The notes: a model not told the origin generated them from the sequence alone. Counted from the stretch's first letter, positions 2,648 through 44,814 are shown. The stretch is 54,194 bases of DNA from Parcubacteria group bacterium (GCA_016188835.1 JACPHB010000010.1:1-54194), one strand, 5' to 3'. Translations and numbers: made by a program.

Positions 2648-4231
2648 ATGCCCAGCAAATATAACACTATCGCTTTAATTTTAATTATCACTATTGCGAT
2701 TTTTTTCAGGTTCTGGCAGTTTAATTCCATCCCACCCGGTTTATATCAAGACGAAGCGATGAATGGCGCCGACGCCTTGAGTTCTTTAGAAAGCGGAAAA
2801 CTTGGCGTTTTTTATACAAATAACAATGGCCGCGAAGGAATGATTGTTTGGTTAGATGCTTTAGCTATTAAAGTTTTTGGAACAGAACCATGGGTGTTAA
2901 GATTATTTCCCGCCCTTGCCGGAGTTTTGGCCGTTTTAGTGTTGTTTTTTCTGGCAAAAGAACTTTTTAGTGTTGAGATTGCCTTGGCTTCAAGCTTTTT
3001 TATGGCAACCAGTTTCTGGGCGGTAAATTTCAGCCGAATCGGTTTTAGAGCCGGACTTATGCTGCCAATCTTAATATGGTCTTTTTACTTCTTATATCGC
3101 GGCTTTAAATTATTGACATCCGATGTCGATAGCGACTATCGACATCGGATGTCAGATTTTATTACTGCTGGAATTTTATTCGGTTTGGGATTTTATACTT
3201 ATATTTCGTATAGATTCGCGCCGATTTTAGTCGCCGCATTTTTCATACCCTATCTTTTAAAACATCACATAAAAAACCTGTGGTTGGGATTTGCGATTTT
3301 CGCGATTACGGCTTTTATTGTCGCTTTACCGATAGGACTTTATTTTATTAATAACTCCGGCGACTTTTTCGGAAGAAGCAGGCAAGTATCTATTTTTTCA
3401 GCAGATAACCCCCTTAAGGCCTCTGTTTTAAGCATTGCGGCAACATTAGGAATGTTTAATATTATCGGAGACCTTAACTCACGGCATAATTTTGCCGGCT
3501 CTCCGCAATTGCTTTTGCCGGTGGGAATTTTATTTATTTTAGGGATTTTGATATGCGCCAAAAGAAGAAATTTGAGCGATAAGTTTTTATTGCTCTGGTT
3601 TTTTATATTTTTACTGCCAAATATTTTATCAACGGAGGGTAATCCCCACGCTTTGCGGGCTTTGGGAGCGATGCCTGCAGCAATGATTTTTGCCGGCATT
3701 GGATTAATTTGGCTTTATCAAAAAGTTAAAGGATATTTTGATAAAAAGATTAAAAATTTAGAACTTGAAGCTTACCGCGGCCAATTATTAAGAATTAAAA
3801 AAGAGGTCTTTATATTGCTATTCATTTTTTTATTGTTCATAAGCTTTTCTGAATTTAACAAATATTTTATTAAATGGGCTTCAAACATCCGCACCGCCGA
3901 TGCCTTTTCGCAAAGCCATGTTAAAATTGCCGACTACTTAAACCTATCGCCGAGAAACGTTAAAAAATATGTTATTTGGCCTGTGGATGATCGGCCAACA
4001 GAAAACGGCTTGCCGGTTTCCGCGCAAACCATATATTTCCTTACTTATGGAAAATCCGATATAAATTATGTGAAGTTCAATGAATCTGATAAAATAAATT
4101 TAGGGGCAAACGGTGCGATAATCGCTACGCTTAACTCCGATTTGGACTTGCTTCACGATTTAAATAAAAAATTTCCGAGCGGGAAAATTGAATTTATTTA
4201 TTTAAACACTCCGATTTTAATAGTTCCATAA
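2648..4231 (+). CDS. Polytopic membrane glycosyltransferase, GT39 / ArnT-PMT-like
   Basis: The 527-aa protein has many hydrophobic segments. The N-terminal loop PPGLYQDEAMNGADA carries the DE motif typical of ArnT/PMT-type lipid-carrier-dependent glycosyltransferases. Confidence 0.8.
   Translation: MPSKYNTIALILIITIAIFFRFWQFNSIPPGLYQDEAMNGADALSSLESGKLGVFYTNNNGREGMIVWLDALAIKVFGTEPWVLRLFPALAGVLAVLVLFFLAKELFSVEIALASSFFMATSFWAVNFSRIGFRAGLMLPILIWSFYFLYRGFKLLTSDVDSDYRHRMSDFITAGILFGLGFYTYISYRFAPILVAAFFIPYLLKHHIKNLWLGFAIFAITAFIVALPIGLYFINNSGDFFGRSRQVSIFSADNPLKASVLSIAATLGMFNIIGDLNSRHNFAGSPQLLLPVGILFILGILICAKRRNLSDKFLLLWFFIFLLPNILSTEGNPHALRALGAMPAAMIFAGIGLIWLYQKVKGYFDKKIKNLELEAYRGQLLRIKKEVFILLFIFLLFISFSEFNKYFIKWASNIRTADAFSQSHVKIADYLNLSPRNVKKYVIWPVDDRPTENGLPVSAQTIYFLTYGKSDINYVKFNESDKINLGANGAIIATLNSDLDLLHDLNKKFPSGKIEFIYLNTPILIVP
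3114..3154. repeat. Perfect 18-bp inverted repeat with a 5-nt loop inside the GT39 coding sequence
   Basis: The sequence is tgacatccgatgtcgata-gcgac-tatcgacatcggatgtca. It is in frame and encodes LTSDVDSDYRHRMSD. Confidence 0.9.
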
Positions 4232-6550: not shown

Positions 6551-7339
6551 TTATTTTAATTTATAAAAAACGCGGCTCGGGATGCGCAAATCCACATATT
6601 CTAAATTACCGGTGTTTTTTACCGCTTCCTCTAAAATCGACAGTAAATTATTAACTGCCGCCGCCGGCTCCTGCTTTTCATCAAGATAAATTGACCAATT
6701 TTTATTTGTTACGGCTTCCAAATCAACAGAAAAATTTGGTTTTATTTTAAATTCTAAAATTTTAAATTTATTATTTTCTGAAATTTTGGCATTAAAAGCA
6801 AATATAAAATTGATTAAATTATCATCTAAAACTTTATCACCCAATAAAATATTGTTTTTTGACAAATCCTCTATTTTCAATATTAAACTGCCTTCGGTTT
6901 CGGGCGTCTTTGCAAATGCAACGCCGGTTTTATCGAAGTAATAGCAACCAGCGCTATTACACCAAATACCAATCTGAATTCTTTTATGAAAATCTATTGT
7001 AATTGTGTTAAATAATTTTTTTGTGATTGTTATGTCGGTTATAGACGGAAAAGCGGCGGCTAATTCCGATTTTAACCGTGATTTTGATAAAATTAATAAG
7101 TTTTCACCCAATCCGAACGAATTGATATTTGAGATTATACTTAGAATATTATCGCGATTTAAAACGGTATTATCGGAAAAATTTATATTTTGAATTTTTA
7201 AAAAAGATGATAAAAAAATTAACCAAAATACAGTTAGAATAATGGCTAAAAGAAAAAATAAAAAAAATAAAATTTTTATTTTTTTAATTTTTTCTTCTTT
7301 GCTTATTGTTTTGAATCTGTAATAGCGGCTTGATGGCAT
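6551..7339 (-). CDS. ftsQ: Cell division protein FtsQ/DivIB-like (TM + POTRA)
   Basis: The 262-aa protein has one N-terminal TM followed by a POTRA-like segment (KIQNINFSDNTVLNRDNILSII...ITITKKLFNTITIDFHKR). Confidence 0.65.
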   Translation of the reverse strand: MPSSRYYRFKTISKEEKIKKIKILFFLFFLLAIILTVFWLIFLSSFLKIQNINFSDNTVLNRDNILSIISNINSFGLGENLLILSKSRLKSELAAAFPSITDITITKKLFNTITIDFHKRIQIGIWCNSAGCYYFDKTGVAFAKTPETEGSLILKIEDLSKNNILLGDKVLDDNLINFIFAFNAKISENNKFKILEFKIKPNFSVDLEAVTNKNWSIYLDEKQEPAAAVNNLLSILEEAVKNTGNLEYVDLRIPSRVFYKLK

Positions 7340-20805: not shown

Positions 20806-20902
20806 GCCAATAAAACAAATTTTTTTAAAATTCCTTAGCCCCATTCGCCTTCGGCGAACGGCTCGCCCCCGCCTAGAATTTTAAAAAATTTGTTTTATTG
20901 GC
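20806..20902 (+). repeat. Long hairpin element, copy 1: a 27/28-bp AT-rich stem around a conserved GC-rich core
   Basis: The arms are gccaataaaacaaatttttttaaaattc and gaattttaaaaaatttgttttattggc. The core is cttagccccattcgccttcggcgaacggctcgcccccgccta. The right arm encodes the last 9 codons of holB. Confidence 0.9.
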
Positions 20903-22688: not shown

Positions 22689-22693
22689 GTTTT

Positions 22694-22792
22694 AAAAAAT
22701 GAAAATAAAATTTTAAAATTGTCATAGCCCCACCCCGCTTCGCGGGGCGGCACGACCCCGCCTACAATTTTAAAATTTCATTTTCATTTTTT
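22694..22792 (+). repeat. Long hairpin element, copy 2
   Basis: The arms are aaaaaatgaaaataaaattttaaaattgt and acaattttaaaatttcattttcatttttt (29 bp, 1 mismatch). The core is catagccccaccccgcttcgcggggcggcacgaccccgcct. Confidence 0.9.
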
Positions 22793-22799
22793 ATATTAA

Positions 22800-35979: not shown

Positions 35980-38376
35980 TTAACAAACATTGTAATCGCA
36001 GTTACTGCAGTGGCTGCAACCTTCTTCGTAAATCAACGTGCCCTGCCGGCATTGCGGGCAGCGATTACCGCGAAGAATCGCAATTTCTTTTTCTTTTATT
36101 TCTTTATCTTCAATAAAGCCAAAATATTTTAGATAAAAATCAATGGCCTTGCTGACACCATCGGCAAGCGATGTAACTTTTTCTTTTCCGAAACCGGAAG
36201 TGCGGCTTCCGCCAATGCCCCTAAGCTGGTCTTTAAGCTGGGTCAGGCGCTCAATCGGTGTTTTAGGCGATTCAATCCGCAAATGTGCTGAAGCCAACCG
36301 CCCCATGGCTTCGGCATCAGCCGCGGCATCGGTTCCTGCCTTGGCAACATTGATAAAAATCTCAAACGGTTCAATCGGTCCGATTTCAATATCATAATTA
36401 ATGGTGACAAAAGCGGCGCCATCGGGTGTTTCCACACGCGTGGTAATGCCATGAGCCGGCTTTGGCCTTGAGCGGATAAAATCTCGGTAATCTAATTTAC
36501 CCTTTTGACTGTTATCAATTCCCACTGTAAGCACTCCGCCTTTGCAGCCATCGCGAAAAACGGTGATCCCAAGGCAAGCGGTTTCATAAGCAAGCCAATA
36601 AATTTTTTCAATATCGGCCGGCGTGGCCGAATTGGGCAGATTAATGGTTTTACTTACTCCATTATCGGTGTTTTTCTGAAAAGCGGACTGGATTTTGACA
36701 TGCCACTCCGGCTTTATCTCATGGGCAGTGATAAAAACTTTCCTCACATCGCCTGGGATGCCGTCTAAATCGCTAATTTGGCCGCGGTTTTTGACTTCTT
36801 CTTCAAGTTTTTCGGAATAAAAACCGCGCTTTTTGGCAACTTCGAGAAATCTTTCAAATCCTGGCTGGATTCGATATAAAATCCGATTTTCAAACTTGTG
36901 AATTTCCGTAAGGCCGTAGAACGGCTCAATGCCGCCGGAACAGCCGGCCAAAATCCTGATTTCACCGGTCGGAGCAATAGTTGTAATGGTGCAATTTCTC
37001 ATCGGTTTATCATCTTTATAAATACTCTTATCCCATAGCGGGAAAGGTCCTCGTTCCGTGGCGAGTTTTTGCGACTCATCGTGGCCAATATCATTGATAA
37101 ATTTTGATACCTGTTCCGCCAGCTTAATAGCATCATTTGACGCGTAGGGCGTATCAAGATAAGTCAACATGTCGGCCCAGCCCATAATGCCAAGGCCAAT
37201 TCGCCGGATTTTATGCGCAAAATCTGTAATTTGAGGAAGCGGATAAGGATTAAGTTCAATGACATTATCCAAAAAGTGAACGGCTAACCTTACGGTTTTT
37301 TCCAATTCATTGAAATTAATTTTGTATTTATCGTTTTCTCTGATTAGAAACTTGGAAAGATTGATAGAACCCAAATTACAAACATCGAAATCAAAAAGCG
37401 GTTGTTCGCCGCAGGGATTGGTCGCGTTAATCATTTTAAGAGATGGAATTGGATTTGCCCGCCATCTGTTGGTTTTATCAATAAACCACAAACCGGGATC
37501 GCCGGTTTCCCACGCCATTTTTACAATGGCATCAAAAACCGTCCTGGCTTTAATCCGAGATACAACCTCGCCACTATGCGGAGCGATTAAATTATATTCT
37601 GCATTATTTCTAACTGCCTCCATAAAAACATCGGTTGCCGCCACGGAAATATTAAAGTTGGCAATTTGCGTATCAAGAAGCGAAGTTCTTAAAAGGTCTA
37701 AAGCGCGCTTGCTGTAAATGAATGGTTTTACGCGTTCATATATTACCTTGTTTTTATCTATTAACATTCCCTTGGACTCGACAAATTCCATGATATCGGG
37801 ATGATGAACATTCATAATCGCCATATTGGCGCCGCGGCGCATACCACCCTGTTTCACAAATTCGGTTGAAGTATTAAATACTTTAAGGAACGAAACGGGG
37901 CCAGATGACCGGCCGCGAGTGGATTTTACAAGCGCGTCTTTCGGCCGCAAAGATGAAAACGAAAAACCGGTTCCACCTCCGGATTTATGGATTATCGCCT
38001 GCCACTTGATGGCATCATAAATTCCATCCATAGAGTCCTCAACTGGAAGGACAAAACAGGCGGAAAACTGCAATCCGTTGCCGGTGCCGGCATTGTAAAT
38101 TGTCGGAGCGTTCGGGAAAAACTTTCTTTCCGCTAAAGTAGCGTAAAATTCTTTTGCCAAATCATTAACTTCGTCGTCGGACTTATTGAATTTTTTATCG
38201 GCGGAAGCTATGTGGTAAGCGACTCGCCAGCACATGCCTTCAACTGTTTCAACTATTTGGCCGTCTCTATCGCGGCGCAAATAACGCTCGTTAATAAGCT
38301 TAAGCGCATCCTCCGTAAAATCGGGAGCAATAAGGCCTTCGGGCATTTGAGCGATATAAACCTTAGTTCGGCTCAT
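35980..38376 (-). CDS. nrdJ: Class II (adenosylcobalamin-dependent) ribonucleotide reductase with a C-terminal Cys-rich zinc ribbon
   Basis: The 798-aa protein has the active-site NPCGEQPL and the C-terminal CPQCRQGTLIYEEGCSHCSNC. Confidence 0.9.
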   Translation of the reverse strand: MSRTKVYIAQMPEGLIAPDFTEDALKLINERYLRRDRDGQIVETVEGMCWRVAYHIASADKKFNKSDDEVNDLAKEFYATLAERKFFPNAPTIYNAGTGNGLQFSACFVLPVEDSMDGIYDAIKWQAIIHKSGGGTGFSFSSLRPKDALVKSTRGRSSGPVSFLKVFNTSTEFVKQGGMRRGANMAIMNVHHPDIMEFVESKGMLIDKNKVIYERVKPFIYSKRALDLLRTSLLDTQIANFNISVAATDVFMEAVRNNAEYNLIAPHSGEVVSRIKARTVFDAIVKMAWETGDPGLWFIDKTNRWRANPIPSLKMINATNPCGEQPLFDFDVCNLGSINLSKFLIRENDKYKINFNELEKTVRLAVHFLDNVIELNPYPLPQITDFAHKIRRIGLGIMGWADMLTYLDTPYASNDAIKLAEQVSKFINDIGHDESQKLATERGPFPLWDKSIYKDDKPMRNCTITTIAPTGEIRILAGCSGGIEPFYGLTEIHKFENRILYRIQPGFERFLEVAKKRGFYSEKLEEEVKNRGQISDLDGIPGDVRKVFITAHEIKPEWHVKIQSAFQKNTDNGVSKTINLPNSATPADIEKIYWLAYETACLGITVFRDGCKGGVLTVGIDNSQKGKLDYRDFIRSRPKPAHGITTRVETPDGAAFVTINYDIEIGPIEPFEIFINVAKAGTDAAADAEAMGRLASAHLRIESPKTPIERLTQLKDQLRGIGGSRTSGFGKEKVTSLADGVSKAIDFYLKYFGFIEDKEIKEKEIAILRGNRCPQCRQGTLIYEEGCSHCSNCDYNVC

Positions 38377-38556
38377 TTTTTTCCTCTTTTTTAAAGATCA
38401 AAAAACAAAAAGTAAAAACACTTTAACATTAAAAAAAATTTTAATCAAATAGAAAAATTGTGGACAAATTGTCACAAAACATATAACATGGAACACGCAA
38501 CATGAAACGCAAAAACATTTATGTTATATGTTACGTGTTATATGTTGTATGAAACT

Positions 38557-39129
38557 ATGTTATCAATAAATGATTTACAAAACGGAATAAATATCGTTTA
38601 TGAAGAAACGCCCTATCAAGTCCTTGAGGTCCTCCATCTTCATATTGGTCGCGGTGGCAGTAGTATCCAGACAAAACTAAAAAATTTAAAAACCGGTGGA
38701 GTTTTAAACCGTAATTTTAAGCCATCCGATGTTTTTGAAGAAGCGGATATTCTAAAACAGAAAGTGAAATATCTTTACAGCCACAGAGATGAATATTGGT
38801 TTTGCGAAGAAAATAACCAAGTAAAACGTTTTAAACTTTCGCAGGAACAAATTGGAAACGCGATTAATTTTTTAAAACCAAATACTGTTGTTGAGGCGCT
38901 TAATTTCAAAGGTGTAATTTTAAATGTAACCTTGCCTATTAAAATGGATTTTAAAGTTATAGAAGCTCCTCCAGCTACCCGCGGCAACACTGCGCAAGGA
39001 GGAACTAAAACCGTCACCATAGAAACCGGCGCTCAAATTAACACTCCCCTTTTTATAAATGAAGGAGATATAATTCGCATCAACACTCAAACCGGAGAAT
39101 ATGCCGAGCGAGTGGAGAAGGGAAAATAA
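38557..39129 (+). CDS. efp: Elongation factor P. The start is set at MLSINDLQNG.
   Basis: It contains HLHIGRGGSSIQTKLKNLKTG and is about 190 aa from 38557. Confidence 0.9.
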   Translation: MLSINDLQNGINIVYEETPYQVLEVLHLHIGRGGSSIQTKLKNLKTGGVLNRNFKPSDVFEEADILKQKVKYLYSHRDEYWFCEENNQVKRFKLSQEQIGNAINFLKPNTVVEALNFKGVILNVTLPIKMDFKVIEAPPATRGNTAQGGTKTVTIETGAQINTPLFINEGDIIRINTQTGEYAERVEKGK

Positions 39130-41745: not shown

Positions 41746-43452
41746 TTATTTTCCAATTGTCTCTTCCAAAATCTTTTTTAGGCCTTCGGTATCAACGGTT
41801 TTACGCTGCCTGCCCTGCATAGCTTTTGGAGCTGGCGATTCTTGAGTTCGAGGCCTCAACTGCGATAAATGCACTGGTTTAACGGGTGGGCGCCTGCCTG
41901 CCATCGCCTGCGGCTCAGGTCGCTGGCGGGCAGAAGTTTTAGAAAAACAATCCTTACAGTAAACCGGCCTCGTCGGATCAGGTTTAAAAGGAACGGTTGT
42001 ATTTTTCCCGCAATTCGCGCAAACGGCGCTGAACATATTTTTTTTATCATCAAAAGCGCCACGCTCTCCGCTAGAGGGTCCGCGCGAAGATGTATTGTAT
42101 GACGGTAAATCGTAAGCGTCTCTTTGAGACGAACTTTGTGCTTCTGCCTGTAGAACACCTGTAGCAATAGATATGGTGCTTTCTACTTCGGCTTTTGGCG
42201 TGCCATAAGTAATTCTCGAGTACTCTATAATTTCATCGGCATAAGAAATTTCCGGTTTGGAATATGGCGGTAAAGTGATCGCCGAAAACGGCCTTGACGG
42301 AACGCCATCAATCAAAAGACGCAGATAAATATTATAATTAGGCAGATTAAGCAAATCTTGAGCCGTAATGTTAGGGCTAAATTGCTTTTCTTCCAAAAAT
42401 TCAACGTCTTCGCCGCCGGCTCTGAAAGCAATAAATGTGCCGACATTGCCAAAAATCGCGTCTTTTACCTTTACATTTTGGTCGTGAACCAACTGGCCGA
42501 TGTATTGATTGGCAATTGTAAGATCAAGGCGGAATTTTCTGGCTTCCGACAAAATGTCGGCAAAACTATCAGTAACAAAAGTTTGAAATTCGTCAACGTA
42601 AAGATAAAAATCTTTACGGTCTTCTTCCAAAATATCAACCCTACTCATGGCAGCAAGTTGGATTTTGGTGATAAGCATACCACCCAAGAGTTTTGTATTG
42701 TCTTCTCCGAGCCGCCCCTTGCTAAGGTTCATTATTACAATTTTTCCTTCATCCATGGCCTGCCGGAAATTAAACGAAGAAGTCGGCTGACCGATGATGT
42801 TTCTGATGATGGTTGCCGAACTGAACTGGCCGATTTTATTTTGAATGGCCGCCGTCGCTTCCTGTTCGTATTTTTGCTGATAAGCGGCATATTCCTGCGT
42901 CCAAAACGCTTTAATAACTGGATCAGATATTTGGTTCACGATATTTTTTCTAAATGCCTTATCGGAAAACATCCGGTTAACGCCAAGCAAAGTGGAACCT
43001 GGAACTTCTAATAGAGCTAAAATAGTGTTGTTTAAAATATATTCCATTCGAGCGCTCCAAACATCGGGCCAGATTTTTTTAAATACTCCCATAAGACCAG
43101 AGGCCACCAAGTGGCGCGCTTTAGCGTCTATGGTTTCTATGGCGTTAAAAGCTATCGGAAATTCCATATCGGCCGGATTGAAATAAATAACGTCTTTTAT
43201 CCGGTTTTCCGGAATATAATGAAGCAACCTCTCAGCCATTTCACCGTGAGGATCAACAAACCCCATGCCGCGGCCAGCCAAAATATCGGAAATCATCATA
43301 TTCATTTGCAAAGTGGTCTTGCCGGTGCCGGTCTGCCCGATAATGTACATATGGCGACGGCGATCGTCGGTTTTAATGCCGAACTTTTTCCGTTCGTTAC
43401 GGAAAGTCGTTTCGGCAAAAAATGTTATTTCGTTTTTATTTTCGTTATTCAT
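41746..43452 (-). CDS. VirD4/TraG/TraD-like P-loop ATPase with a C-terminal CxxC-x17-CxxC zinc ribbon
   Basis: It has Walker A IIGQTGTGKT, Walker B FYLYVDEFQTF and ARKFRLDLTIANQYIGQL. The tail contains CANCGKNTTVPFKPDPTRPVYCKDC. Confidence 0.8.
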   Translation of the reverse strand: MNNENKNEITFFAETTFRNERKKFGIKTDDRRRHMYIIGQTGTGKTTLQMNMMISDILAGRGMGFVDPHGEMAERLLHYIPENRIKDVIYFNPADMEFPIAFNAIETIDAKARHLVASGLMGVFKKIWPDVWSARMEYILNNTILALLEVPGSTLLGVNRMFSDKAFRKNIVNQISDPVIKAFWTQEYAAYQQKYEQEATAAIQNKIGQFSSATIIRNIIGQPTSSFNFRQAMDEGKIVIMNLSKGRLGEDNTKLLGGMLITKIQLAAMSRVDILEEDRKDFYLYVDEFQTFVTDSFADILSEARKFRLDLTIANQYIGQLVHDQNVKVKDAIFGNVGTFIAFRAGGEDVEFLEEKQFSPNITAQDLLNLPNYNIYLRLLIDGVPSRPFSAITLPPYSKPEISYADEIIEYSRITYGTPKAEVESTISIATGVLQAEAQSSSQRDAYDLPSYNTSSRGPSSGERGAFDDKKNMFSAVCANCGKNTTVPFKPDPTRPVYCKDCFSKTSARQRPEPQAMAGRRPPVKPVHLSQLRPRTQESPAPKAMQGRQRKTVDTEGLKKILEETIGK

Positions 43453-43465
43453 ATTTATGTTATGT

Positions 43466-43563
43466 GATTACAAAAATAATAAAAATAAAATTCTAGGTGG
43501 GGGCGAGCCGTTCGCCGTAGGCGAATGGGGCTAAGGAATTTTATTTTTATTATTTTTGTAATC
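43466..43563 (-). repeat. Long hairpin element, copy 3 (core inverted relative to copies 1 and 2)
   Basis: Perfect 28-bp arms (gattacaaaaataataaaaataaaattc and gaattttatttttattatttttgtaatc) flank the core taggtgggggcgagccgttcgccgtaggcgaatggggctaag. The element fills the gap between the two genes. Confidence 0.9.
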
Positions 43564-43566
43564 ATT

Positions 43567-44814
43567 TTATCCTATTGGCAATGATACCGGCGGCTCCGCT
43601 TTTTTGGACTCAACGCGGCGCATGGTCGGCGTTTCAACCGTTAAAATCGGATAATGATAAATAGTCGCCAATTCTTCAATATTTAAAATAAAATCTTTTT
43701 TCTTCGGCCACTTCCGATTGGCATAACGCTCAATAAAACTTTGTTTTCTTAAAAACTCTTTCCTTTTTTTAAAAGGCGGATCGGCAGAAGTTCCCGCTTC
43801 GCTGTTTGATTTGAAGGCGTTCATATTGACCGTGTTGAACTGTTTGAAAGCGCCATTTATTGCCGCCATATTGGCGCGGCTAAAAATATCGCTTCTGGCA
43901 ATATAAGCAAAACGGATGCTTACCCTAAAAGCCAATTTTGCCATTTTATTTTCAATTGCCTCAATCAAGGCCTTTTCTCCCGATGTAAGATTGGCAATTG
44001 ACGCCTTACTTTCTTCCTTTTTCTTCTCTCCCCAAATGGGATAAATCAAAATGGCTTTTATAAGATTTATTATGAATTCGTCTATCGGCCCCAAAGCTCT
44101 GTCAAGCCAGCTTTCTTTGGTTGCGGTTTTTTTCCCCATCAGCTTGTTTATGAATTCCTGGCCTCTTTCTTTCCATTCTTTTTCGACAGTCGGTTTCATT
44201 AAATATTGAATTAAAATATTTTCTCCCGCCTTAAGTTTTGAAAGAATTTCAAGAAATGAAGCCATCGGGTCAACGCGCCTTTCTTCTTCTTTTTCTTCAA
44301 AAAAAGGATAGGTTCTGATGGGGAAGAAATCATCTTTTTCCAAAATAAGCTCCGCACCGCTTATGTCGTATGTTTTGCTCGGCGTTTTTTTAGCAATTGG
44401 GCCGGCGTAATCCAATACTTCGGAAATTTCCGCGTCTGGATATTGAGCGTGAATCTGGGCCTCAACCAGAGTCCGAAATTGTTCCGGCGTTCTGATAAAA
44501 AAATATACCGCCCCGTCAATGCCGGCGATTTCAAAACTGAACCATTCCTGCACCTTGCCTTTCCAGTATTTATCAATAAATTTGATTTTGGTAATAATGC
44601 CGTGAAGCCCAGAAAATATCTGCTCCATTGATTTCGGGCTTTTTTCAATGTCTCGAGAAACCTTAATCTCAAGAAAAGTCCATTTCAGCGCTTTTATGGC
44701 CGTGGTTTTTAAGTGCCTTACCCACAGTTCTATAAAAACCGCGATTAAAACTACCGGCAGCCAAAGCCACCAGAGCCCCAAAAAAACATTAATAATCGCA
44801 TAAAAAATACCCAT
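43567..44814 (-). CDS. Membrane-anchored partner protein of the ATPase. It is homologous to the N-terminal ~390 aa of the fused gene at 1..2403.
   Basis: It has an N-terminal TM (IINVFLGLWWLWLPVVLIAVFI). The C-terminal ELATIYHYPILTVETPTMRRVESKKAEPPVSLP matches ELTSIFHFPIIKIETPKVRFVKAKAAAPPAILP in the fused gene. Confidence 0.75.
   Translation of the reverse strand: MGIFYAIINVFLGLWWLWLPVVLIAVFIELWVRHLKTTAIKALKWTFLEIKVSRDIEKSPKSMEQIFSGLHGIITKIKFIDKYWKGKVQEWFSFEIAGIDGAVYFFIRTPEQFRTLVEAQIHAQYPDAEISEVLDYAGPIAKKTPSKTYDISGAELILEKDDFFPIRTYPFFEEKEEERRVDPMASFLEILSKLKAGENILIQYLMKPTVEKEWKERGQEFINKLMGKKTATKESWLDRALGPIDEFIINLIKAILIYPIWGEKKKEESKASIANLTSGEKALIEAIENKMAKLAFRVSIRFAYIARSDIFSRANMAAINGAFKQFNTVNMNAFKSNSEAGTSADPPFKKRKEFLRKQSFIERYANRKWPKKKDFILNIEELATIYHYPILTVETPTMRRVESKKAEPPVSLPIG

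Follow-up and report, generated by a model that had tools for sequence, protein, structure and literature searches.

The perfect hairpin at positions 43465-43564 of the window, as the whole 54,194-nt stretch of DNA analysed here is called, belongs, with a probability of roughly 60%, to a non-autonomous, structure-defined repeat family of the REP/MITE kind whose members are gained, lost, inverted and converted at gene boundaries. The family consists of dispersed palindromic repeats of about 95-105 bp and is confined to Candidatus Azambacteria and neighbouring Paceibacteria (Patescibacteria/CPR), tiny bacteria of groundwater. It is apparently previously undescribed, and no description of such a repeat was found in the literature. 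Gain, loss, truncation, inversion and conversion at gene junctions are shown by comparison of orthologous sequences, in which pairing is kept by compensatory change. A preliminary description of the locus had left the choice between an mRNA processing or decoupling site, a protein-recognised cruciform and a miniature mobile element that targets palindromes, and of these three options the mobile element is the best supported.

An inverted-repeat search of the window placed the arms of the hairpin, which is the third copy of the family in the window (copy 3), at 43465-43493 and 43536-43564, each being 29 nt long and 100% complementary to the other with 42 nt between them. The perfect stem around a 42-nt GC-rich core that had been described before was thereby borne out, with 1 bp more per side than the claimed 28. 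RNA folding of copy 3 gave -40.8 kcal/mol for the minus strand, which is the mRNA sense, and -48.3 kcal/mol for the plus strand, compared with -9.6 (minus) and -18.8 (plus) kcal/mol for the shuffled sequence (z = -11.6 and -9.8; 0 of 200 shuffles were as stable). On the plus strand, here the G-rich orientation, copy 3 begins with the A-rich 5′ arm (43465..43493), of which the inner ~12 nt, AAATAAAATTC, are common to other copies of the subfamily and the outer ~15 nt were found at the copy 3 locus only. The TAG half (43494..43496) of a 3-bp TAG/CUA helix follows, which is invariant in the family and gives a stop codon at the core edge in either orientation. Next in order are an 11-nt G-rich asymmetric internal loop, GGYGGGGKCGWG (43497..43507; the copy 3 version is GGTGGGGGCGA-G), faced by GG alone (43529-43530), and an inner 9-bp hairpin, CCGUUCGCC-GUA-GGCGAAUGG (43508..43528), that includes a conserved G·U pair. 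Positions 43531..43535 comprise the CTA that completes the 3-bp helix and a 2-nt AG bulge, and the U-rich 3′ arm (43536..43564) is the perfect complement of 43465-43493. The minus-strand transcript at copy 3 is the C-rich version of the hairpin.

Copy 3 fills the gap between two minus-strand genes, just as had been reported, and the hairpins of the window take up their gaps almost entirely. The upstream gene (43567..44814, -; 415 aa), whose orthologs carry Pfam DUF8128, has its TAA stop 2 nt before the stem, and the downstream gene (41746..43452, -; 568 aa), encoding a TrwB/T4CP-like ATPase with a treble-clef zinc finger, has its ATG 12 nt after it. Copy 1 (20806..20902) lies between holB and frr and copy 2 (22693..22793) between murA and mreB, both with the G-rich strand on the minus strand, that is on the gene strand. 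With the G-rich strand of copy 3 on the plus strand and all flanking genes on the minus strand, copy 3 is inverted relative to the genes in comparison with copies 1 and 2, which confirms the orientation given in the preliminary description. The agreement at 48 of 50 positions claimed there between the core of copy 3 (+) and that of copy 1 (-) also proved correct, with T/C at position 5 of the core and T/A in its apical loop as the two differences. A 32-nt core pattern matches the window at 20838-20869(-) and 43500-43531(+), with 0 matches expected (100 shuffles). Copy 2 is more diverged than copies 1 and 3, with a core of the T/T/CGA-type subfamily and the inner hairpin CCCCGC/GCGGGG. The window is an unremarkable stretch of chromosome from a Candidatus Azambacteria bacterium (Patescibacteria); its MreB has 98% identity to named Azambacteria proteins, and its genes are housekeeping genes, with no transposase and no intI among them.

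Two further inverted repeats in the window were recorded. A 50-nt imperfect inverted repeat at 38457-38567 is 72% complementary and contains many ACATATAAC/GTTATATGT motifs. It is situated between two divergent genes, ribonucleotide reductase (35980-38376, -) and efp (38521-39129, +), and could be a regulator-binding region such as one of NrdR-type boxes. The other is a perfect 19-bp inverted repeat with a 3-nt loop at 3114-3154, TGACATCCGATGTCGATAG / CTATCGACATCGGATGTCA, inside a PMT_2 glycosyltransferase ORF (2648-4231).

The family was searched for by scanning a pattern of conserved core bases over species-representative genomes, groundwater metagenome contigs and viral contigs. Between them, 7 species-representative genomes, every one from Patescibacteria, contained the pattern at 27 loci, of which one MAG alone had at least 18. 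More than 120 groundwater metagenome contigs were also among the matches listed, so the core that the preliminary description knew from the window is found elsewhere. The sole viral-contig match (L151) is a chance match with neither arms nor inner hairpin. A covariance model built from 27 copies gave 32 + 104 matches in ~870 kb, every one full length, and no more divergent variants were recovered in these scans. The invariance of the conserved loop and TAG bases is partly circular, these bases being partly fixed by the search pattern; conservation of the core nevertheless looks real because the covariance-model scans gave no divergent variants. Against Rfam 15 at the gathering threshold the whole window yielded 3 tRNAs only, and a permissive Rfam scan of 43440-43590 yielded only generic AT-hairpin matches to miRNA precursors, at 25 bits versus thresholds above 200. 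A tRNA- or tmRNA-like identity was rejected, ARAGORN giving only the 3 tRNAs at 4.3-4.6 kb.

The anatomy of the family was established from 121 non-redundant copies read 5′ to 3′ on the G-rich strand. The order of parts is an A-rich arm, TAG, the 11-nt loop, a hairpin of 9-11 bp, GG, CUA pairing with the TAG, a bulge of 2-3 nt and a U-rich arm. The conserved unit is a GC-rich structured core of ~45 nt with ~10 bp of inner arm per side, continued by ~15 bp of locus-specific stem, and stem length is sharply peaked at 26-29 bp, with the stems almost perfectly paired and 59 of the 121 wholly so. The apical loops of the inner hairpin are GAA, GCA, GUA, AAA or AGCU, and the bulge is AG in 93 copies and CGA in 14, the latter a subfamily. 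Of the free positions within the 11-nt loop, Y is T 69 times and C 50 times, K is G 97 times and T 20 times, and W is A 89 times and T 28 times. The inner ~10 bp of the arms are conserved per subfamily (…AAAATTC, …TTTAAAATTG, …AAAATCG and …AAAAGTC), and the outer ~15 bp are unrelated between loci, yet complementary inside each copy. Outer and inner helices are both backed by covariation, with 95.6% and 97.6% of cells paired and 105 and 283 double-change cells respectively; none of 500 shuffles reached the observed value, and pairing collapsed in slid registers. The stem of the inner hairpin also varies between copies with compensation, double changes being seen at 6 of 9 pairs and 99.3% of cells being paired. 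Readings of the core as group II intron domain V, K-turn or G-quadruplex were discarded by eye, pairing or consensus being unfit.

These data leave next to no probability for a chance palindrome, an assembly artefact or a small protein-coding ORF, although the genome is AT-rich and a few copies have an in-frame upstream ATG. Chance matches to the core are expected zero times, and an assembly artefact, as envisaged in the preliminary description, is excluded by the same architecture in more than 150 independent contigs from different assemblies. A micro-ORF through the core, suggested by the in-frame ATG...TAA of some copies, was also rejected: the inner-hairpin lengths of 17, 18, 19 and 20 nt break the frame and exclude any reading frame through the core, and the elements are therefore non-coding.

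Which strand of the element is preserved was read from the arms, every non-Watson-Crick arm pair being penalised equally. On the G-rich strand arm mismatches were G·U in 30 cases and A·C in 5 (p = 2e-5), some of the G·U pairs being shared by descent within subfamilies and hence not all independent. The G·U:A·C bias was 13:3 in copies that are sense and 6:1 in copies that are antisense relative to the neighbouring genes, and inner pair 27-45 is formed by G·U in 47 of the distinct sequences, by A-U in 18 and by G-C in 1. Since the bias follows the core, whatever the direction of the genes, the strand whose fold is preserved is tied to the element and not to the host transcript. A protein-recognised cruciform is possible, yet the preponderance of G·U pairs argues more for folding of the G-rich strand as a single strand than for a symmetric cruciform.

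The same signals bear on the idea that the hairpin is a cis-acting structured RNA of the host, for example a site processed by RNase III or another nuclease, or a 3′-UTR element bound by protein, selected as RNA in the G-rich orientation. Strong covariation, the G·U over A·C bias together with the conserved G·U pair, an invariant internal loop that suggests a specific ligand and a modest excess of sense copies, 38 versus 25 antisense, would all be expected of such an RNA. It is however quite unlikely, as about 40% of the copies, with copy 3 itself antisense, show the C-rich strand to the flanking mRNA and the G·U bias remains in antisense copies. The core is moreover flipped between strains that are 98-99.9% identical, no gene family is associated with the element, and orthologous junctions occur without it.

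Flipping was found repeatedly among orthologous copies with matching flanks, 12 pairs having inverted cores and 24 pairs having the same core orientation. Loci L053 and L097 show 98.2-99.9% identity over 2.2 kb and the ~100-nt hairpin aligns in reverse only; copy 1 of the window and L039 have common arms and flanks and opposite cores. Swapping was also evident, 15 of the 24 same-orientation pairs having differing inner-hairpin alleles in identical arms (e.g. L092/L147, L043/L145 and L064/L148/L101). The coordinated changes in these alleles are too many for point mutation, and conversion or replacement is therefore concluded. In L074 versus L131, where flanks are identical, a single compensatory T-A to C-G change separates the arms.

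An invertible switch, or hairpin inverton, in which the 27-29 bp inverted repeats flip the 42-nt core and so toggle the downstream gene through transcript stability or factor binding, has in its favour that inverted repeats surround a segment seen in both orientations at orthologous sites, including the near-identical L053/L097, and that the two strands of copy 3 differ in fold energy as given above. Such a switch is very unlikely all the same: no invertase or other recombinase gene lies within 2 kb, the two orientations were seen between strains, the 42-nt segment holds no promoter-sized payload, and flipping is expected as a passive by-product of perfect inverted repeats. A length of 42 bp is also far below that of the recombinase-driven invertible segments known.

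Presence of the element varies as much as its orientation. All three window sites lack it in close relatives, and the comparison with orthologous intergenic regions without the core that the preliminary description had proposed could thus be made for every copy. At murA-mreB the element is present in the window and in L102; L152, L153, L154, L157 and L158 have a 4-nt ATGA overlap of the two genes, and L028, L029 and L030 have a short gap. A truncated element remains at this junction in L155 (2951-2995) and L156: it has lost the 5′ arm together with the G-rich loop and retains just the 3′ arm preceded by the 3′ half of the core (ggcgaatggggctacga). At holB-frr the site is empty in six relatives (L028, L030, L153, L154, L157 and L158), filled in the window and L039 and filled with different arms in L029 and L109. 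L152 (4828-4873), and also L155 and L156, carry there a core-less AT palindrome, ATACTAACAAAATAAAA-tataaaaattg-TTTTTATTTTGTTAGTAT. In L152 its first arm is the native holB end and is followed by a direct repeat of the junction, and this a-b-a'-b arrangement looks like a fold-back template-switch product or a core deletion. The DUF8128-ATPase junction, the site of copy 3, is empty in L162, with a 23-nt gap, and holds unrelated inserts in L159-L161. In further filled/empty pairs the empty state is again an overlapping stop/start, e.g. ATGGTAG in L148 versus the filled L064. Many gene pairs overlap by ATGA or ATGGTAG (e.g. L152-L158, 3001-3004), and such junctions are repeatedly filled in other strains. 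Part of this presence and absence could be due to repeated precise loss and not to insertion.

With these sites at hand, the earlier suggestion of a miniature mobile element that targets palindromes holds in its first part, the family loci and the empty sites revealing a dispersed repeat that is gained and lost, but not in its second. No palindrome is present at the empty murA-mreB or DUF8128-ATPase junctions, and the one core-less palindrome seen is that at holB-frr in L152, L155 and L156, so pre-existing palindromes do not appear as the targets. An AT palindrome of 23 bp at 7250-7296 of the window was considered as an empty arm pair and rejected, being coding sequence for a Lys-rich and then Phe/Leu-rich membrane segment at the N-terminus of ORF 6551-7339.

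Other insertions were observed at the junctions of these genomes. An AT-only intergenic repeat, …ttttcaataa.caattttcaaa.tgtttgaaaattaaaaattaaatcattgattgaaaatt…, at L159:2392-2500, L160:2419-2500 and L029:11015-11179 occupies different Azambacteria junctions, DUF8128-ATPase and mreB-holB. The DUF8128-ATPase junction of L161 (2352-2497; ATPase 90% identity) holds another GC-rich core of ~95 nt in a similar 16+7-bp AT-rich stem, AAAAATTGACAAAAAT…ATTTTTTGTCAATTTTT, with a fold of -54.3 kcal/mol (z = -7.1) and no Rfam match. This insert is unique among 162 loci and suggests that several families of elements with an AT stem and a GC core exist. Upstream of murA in L153 (821-1693), and in that Azambacteria strain only, an rve-family integrase gene was found, which indicates that conventional IS elements also occur in the Azambacteria lineage.

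The origin of the locus-specific arms was traced best at holB-frr. In the window holB (265 aa) runs through the whole 5′ arm of copy 1 and ends at the core TAG, thereby gaining 9 codons, ANKTNFLKF (window 20873-20902). An anchored alignment of this junction sets the gene-proximal arm of copy 1, ATGCCAATAAAACAAAT, in register with ATGCTAATAAAATAAAA, the native end of holB in relatives whose site is empty, stop codon included, and the other arm is an inverted copy of the gene-proximal one. The native holB TAA of the relatives is ACA in the window, and the opposite arm of copy 1 has the matching compensating change. The arms of L046 and L037 likewise align with the native sequence of L125. This two-site observation is suggestive of outer arms derived from local sequence; in a crude systematic test of outer arms against local empty-site sequence, 4 of 23 sites gave p < 0.05, which is near chance. 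At some sites the stretch around the stop and start codons looks duplicated, as in L064 compared with L148, in L079 compared with L064 and in the a-b-a'-b of L152, with no fixed motif or length among these duplications. A conserved terminal motif or a fixed TSD (TGA/ATGA) was rejected, since it is found in a subset of copies only and corresponds to vestigial stop and start codons of overlapping junctions.

A more specific and fairly improbable reading may be formulated, in which core and inner arms are mobile DNA that is recognised by its structure and makes its stem itself. When such DNA enters a gene junction, some 15 bp of the target would be copied in inverted form, for instance if a G-rich single-stranded intermediate folded back and primed its own synthesis. 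The resulting stem of ~27 bp would loop out the insert and bring the upstream stop back beside the downstream start, and the centre would from then on be a flip-and-swap cassette, inverted and converted between copies.

With respect to the neighbouring genes, the copies with both neighbours called were sense/sense in 24 cases, antisense/antisense in 18, convergent in 15 and divergent in 2. Most copies adjoin a gene 3′ end, and upstream ORFs often enter the arm and end there or at the core TAG. When the 404 ORFs that neighbour 55 sites, to a distance of 2 kb, were clustered, only housekeeping genes emerged, with no recurrent gene, transposase or recombinase, and no mobilising enzyme, clear target-site duplication or transposition intermediate was identified at the loci examined.

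This position could be that of a portable bidirectional intrinsic terminator or insulator, which would stop or pause RNA polymerase from either side and be kept by the host at gene ends. The layout of A-tract, GC-rich hairpin and U-tract is reverse-complement symmetric, the preference for gene 3′ ends and for convergent over divergent pairs would suit a terminator, and an orientation-independent function fits the flipping; in E. coli bidirectional terminators the pairing of A-tract and U-tract strengthens termination. The reading is possible but unlikely, for the element is inserted between overlapping (ATGA) and presumably co-transcribed genes, e.g. murA-mreB, with 4-12 nt to the next start, close relatives manage without it, and neither the invariant 11-nt loop nor the TAG/CUA helix is needed for termination. 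An intrinsic-terminator consensus scan flagged ordinary terminators in the window and 0 of the 3 copies. The core helix is closed by TAG/CUA and C-G and then continues into AAUUUUAUUUUU, which pairs with the A-rich arm, and by sequence rules the element does not look like a canonical terminator. Bidirectional terminators are further unlike this family in that here one ~45-nt core recurs across several genera and dozens of unrelated loci, the pairing of A with U extends over 26-29 bp, GGCUAAG separates the inner hairpin from the U-rich arm, and the insertions are inside formerly overlapping gene pairs.

The nearest known systems are REP/REPIN and those MITEs that form hairpins in transcripts, such as Correia elements. 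As with REP, BIME and REPIN sequences, the copies are short, non-coding, extragenic palindromes in high number and both orientations, located at gene 3′ ends and between convergent pairs and absent from promoter regions. The numbers given above, at least 18 copies in one MAG, 3 in the 54-kb window and only 2 divergent pairs, are a REP-like distribution, and, as in REP, conservation of the structure leaves room for G·T/G·U pairs on one strand. About half of the copies have GTAG at the core foot (…ATTG|TAGG…), which recalls the GTAG tetranucleotide of REP, and the rest have C before TAG (pair 10: C-G 31, G-C 29). REP/REPIN elements are however 20-40 nt long with conserved arms and a variable loop, whereas in this family of ~100 nt the centre is conserved, with nested helices and an invariant internal loop, and the arms of 26-29 bp are locus-unique in their outer ~15 bp. 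REP/REPIN are mobilised by RAYT Y1 transposases, but no RAYT-like gene is present in the window or within 2 kb of 55 sites, and the copy number is tens per genome compared with hundreds for REP.

The resemblance to MITEs (Correia of Neisseria, RUP, BOX and SPRITE of pneumococci, ERIC of enterobacteria and RPE of Rickettsia) lies in non-autonomous repeats of ~100-150 bp at gene junctions that are co-transcribed, form long hairpins, can supply stop codons and show presence/absence polymorphism between strains. RNase III cleaves the hairpins of Correia elements, and these can also serve as promoters or terminators. MITEs, in contrast to this family, have conserved terminal inverted repeats and a direct duplication of fixed length; in the present elements conservation is lowest at the termini, which differ at every locus, and no fixed duplication was found. 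No parent IS element was seen for the family. Integron attC sites are similar in being ~100 nt long, located between genes and conserved in the folded strand rather than in arm sequence. They differ by their R''/R' boxes (RYYYAAC/GTTRRRY), extrahelical bases, variable centre and cassettes, while the present elements have perfect stems, a conserved centre, housekeeping neighbours and no intI. The arm ends hold no GTTRRRY motif, and an attC identity is ruled out by the perfect stems, the conserved centre and the absent R''/R' boxes.

Under the favoured reading, a mobile repeat of REP/MITE character, the element would spread as DNA through a single-stranded fold of the G-rich strand, as is suggested by a G·U bias that goes with the core irrespective of gene direction. 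A trans-acting factor would recognise the folded strand, and the invariant 11-nt loop with the TAG/CTA helix looks like a putative recognition site for such a protein. Templated repair within the palindrome, or template switching, may keep the long arms perfect and probably lengthens them into the neighbouring sequence, and the same perfect inverted repeats and repair would let the centre flip. At copy 3 the base of the hairpin would bring the stop codon of the DUF8128 gene, 2 nt away, next to the ATPase start codon, 12 nt away, and by re-juxtaposing stop and start in this way the stem may render insertion into overlapping gene pairs tolerable.

Copy 3 itself is most likely an inert, looped-out insert that would additionally provide a strong 3′-end, processing or terminator-like hairpin between the two genes. 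The element must give its transcripts a very stable hairpin. A perfect duplex of 29 bp in a transcript would be a substrate of RNase III, and RNase III cleavage, exonuclease blocking or termination at the copy 3 transcript hairpin are each plausible, none of them being specific to the DUF8128-ATPase pair. Given its occurrence in both orientations, its flipping between near-identical strains and its absence at the corresponding junction of relatives, the element is not a device dedicated to regulating the DUF8128 and ATPase genes.

Patescibacteria genomes are among the smallest and most streamlined in bacteria, and a repeat family colonising junctions of essential genes is unexpected in them, the more so for one that is structurally perfect and yet inverted or exchanged between strains otherwise 98-99.9% identical. 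For annotation the element is an issue, as it lengthens ORFs, holB by 9 codons, and splits overlapping gene pairs. It is also a tractable marker of recombination and replication slippage in organisms not yet cultured. If the invariant G-rich loop binds a protein or nuclease, it would be a new lineage-specific module of RNA or ssDNA recognition. If the locus-specific arms are an inverted target duplication, a stem-building element would represent a new insertion mechanism, giving inverted and not direct target duplications in genomes with almost no other mobile DNA.
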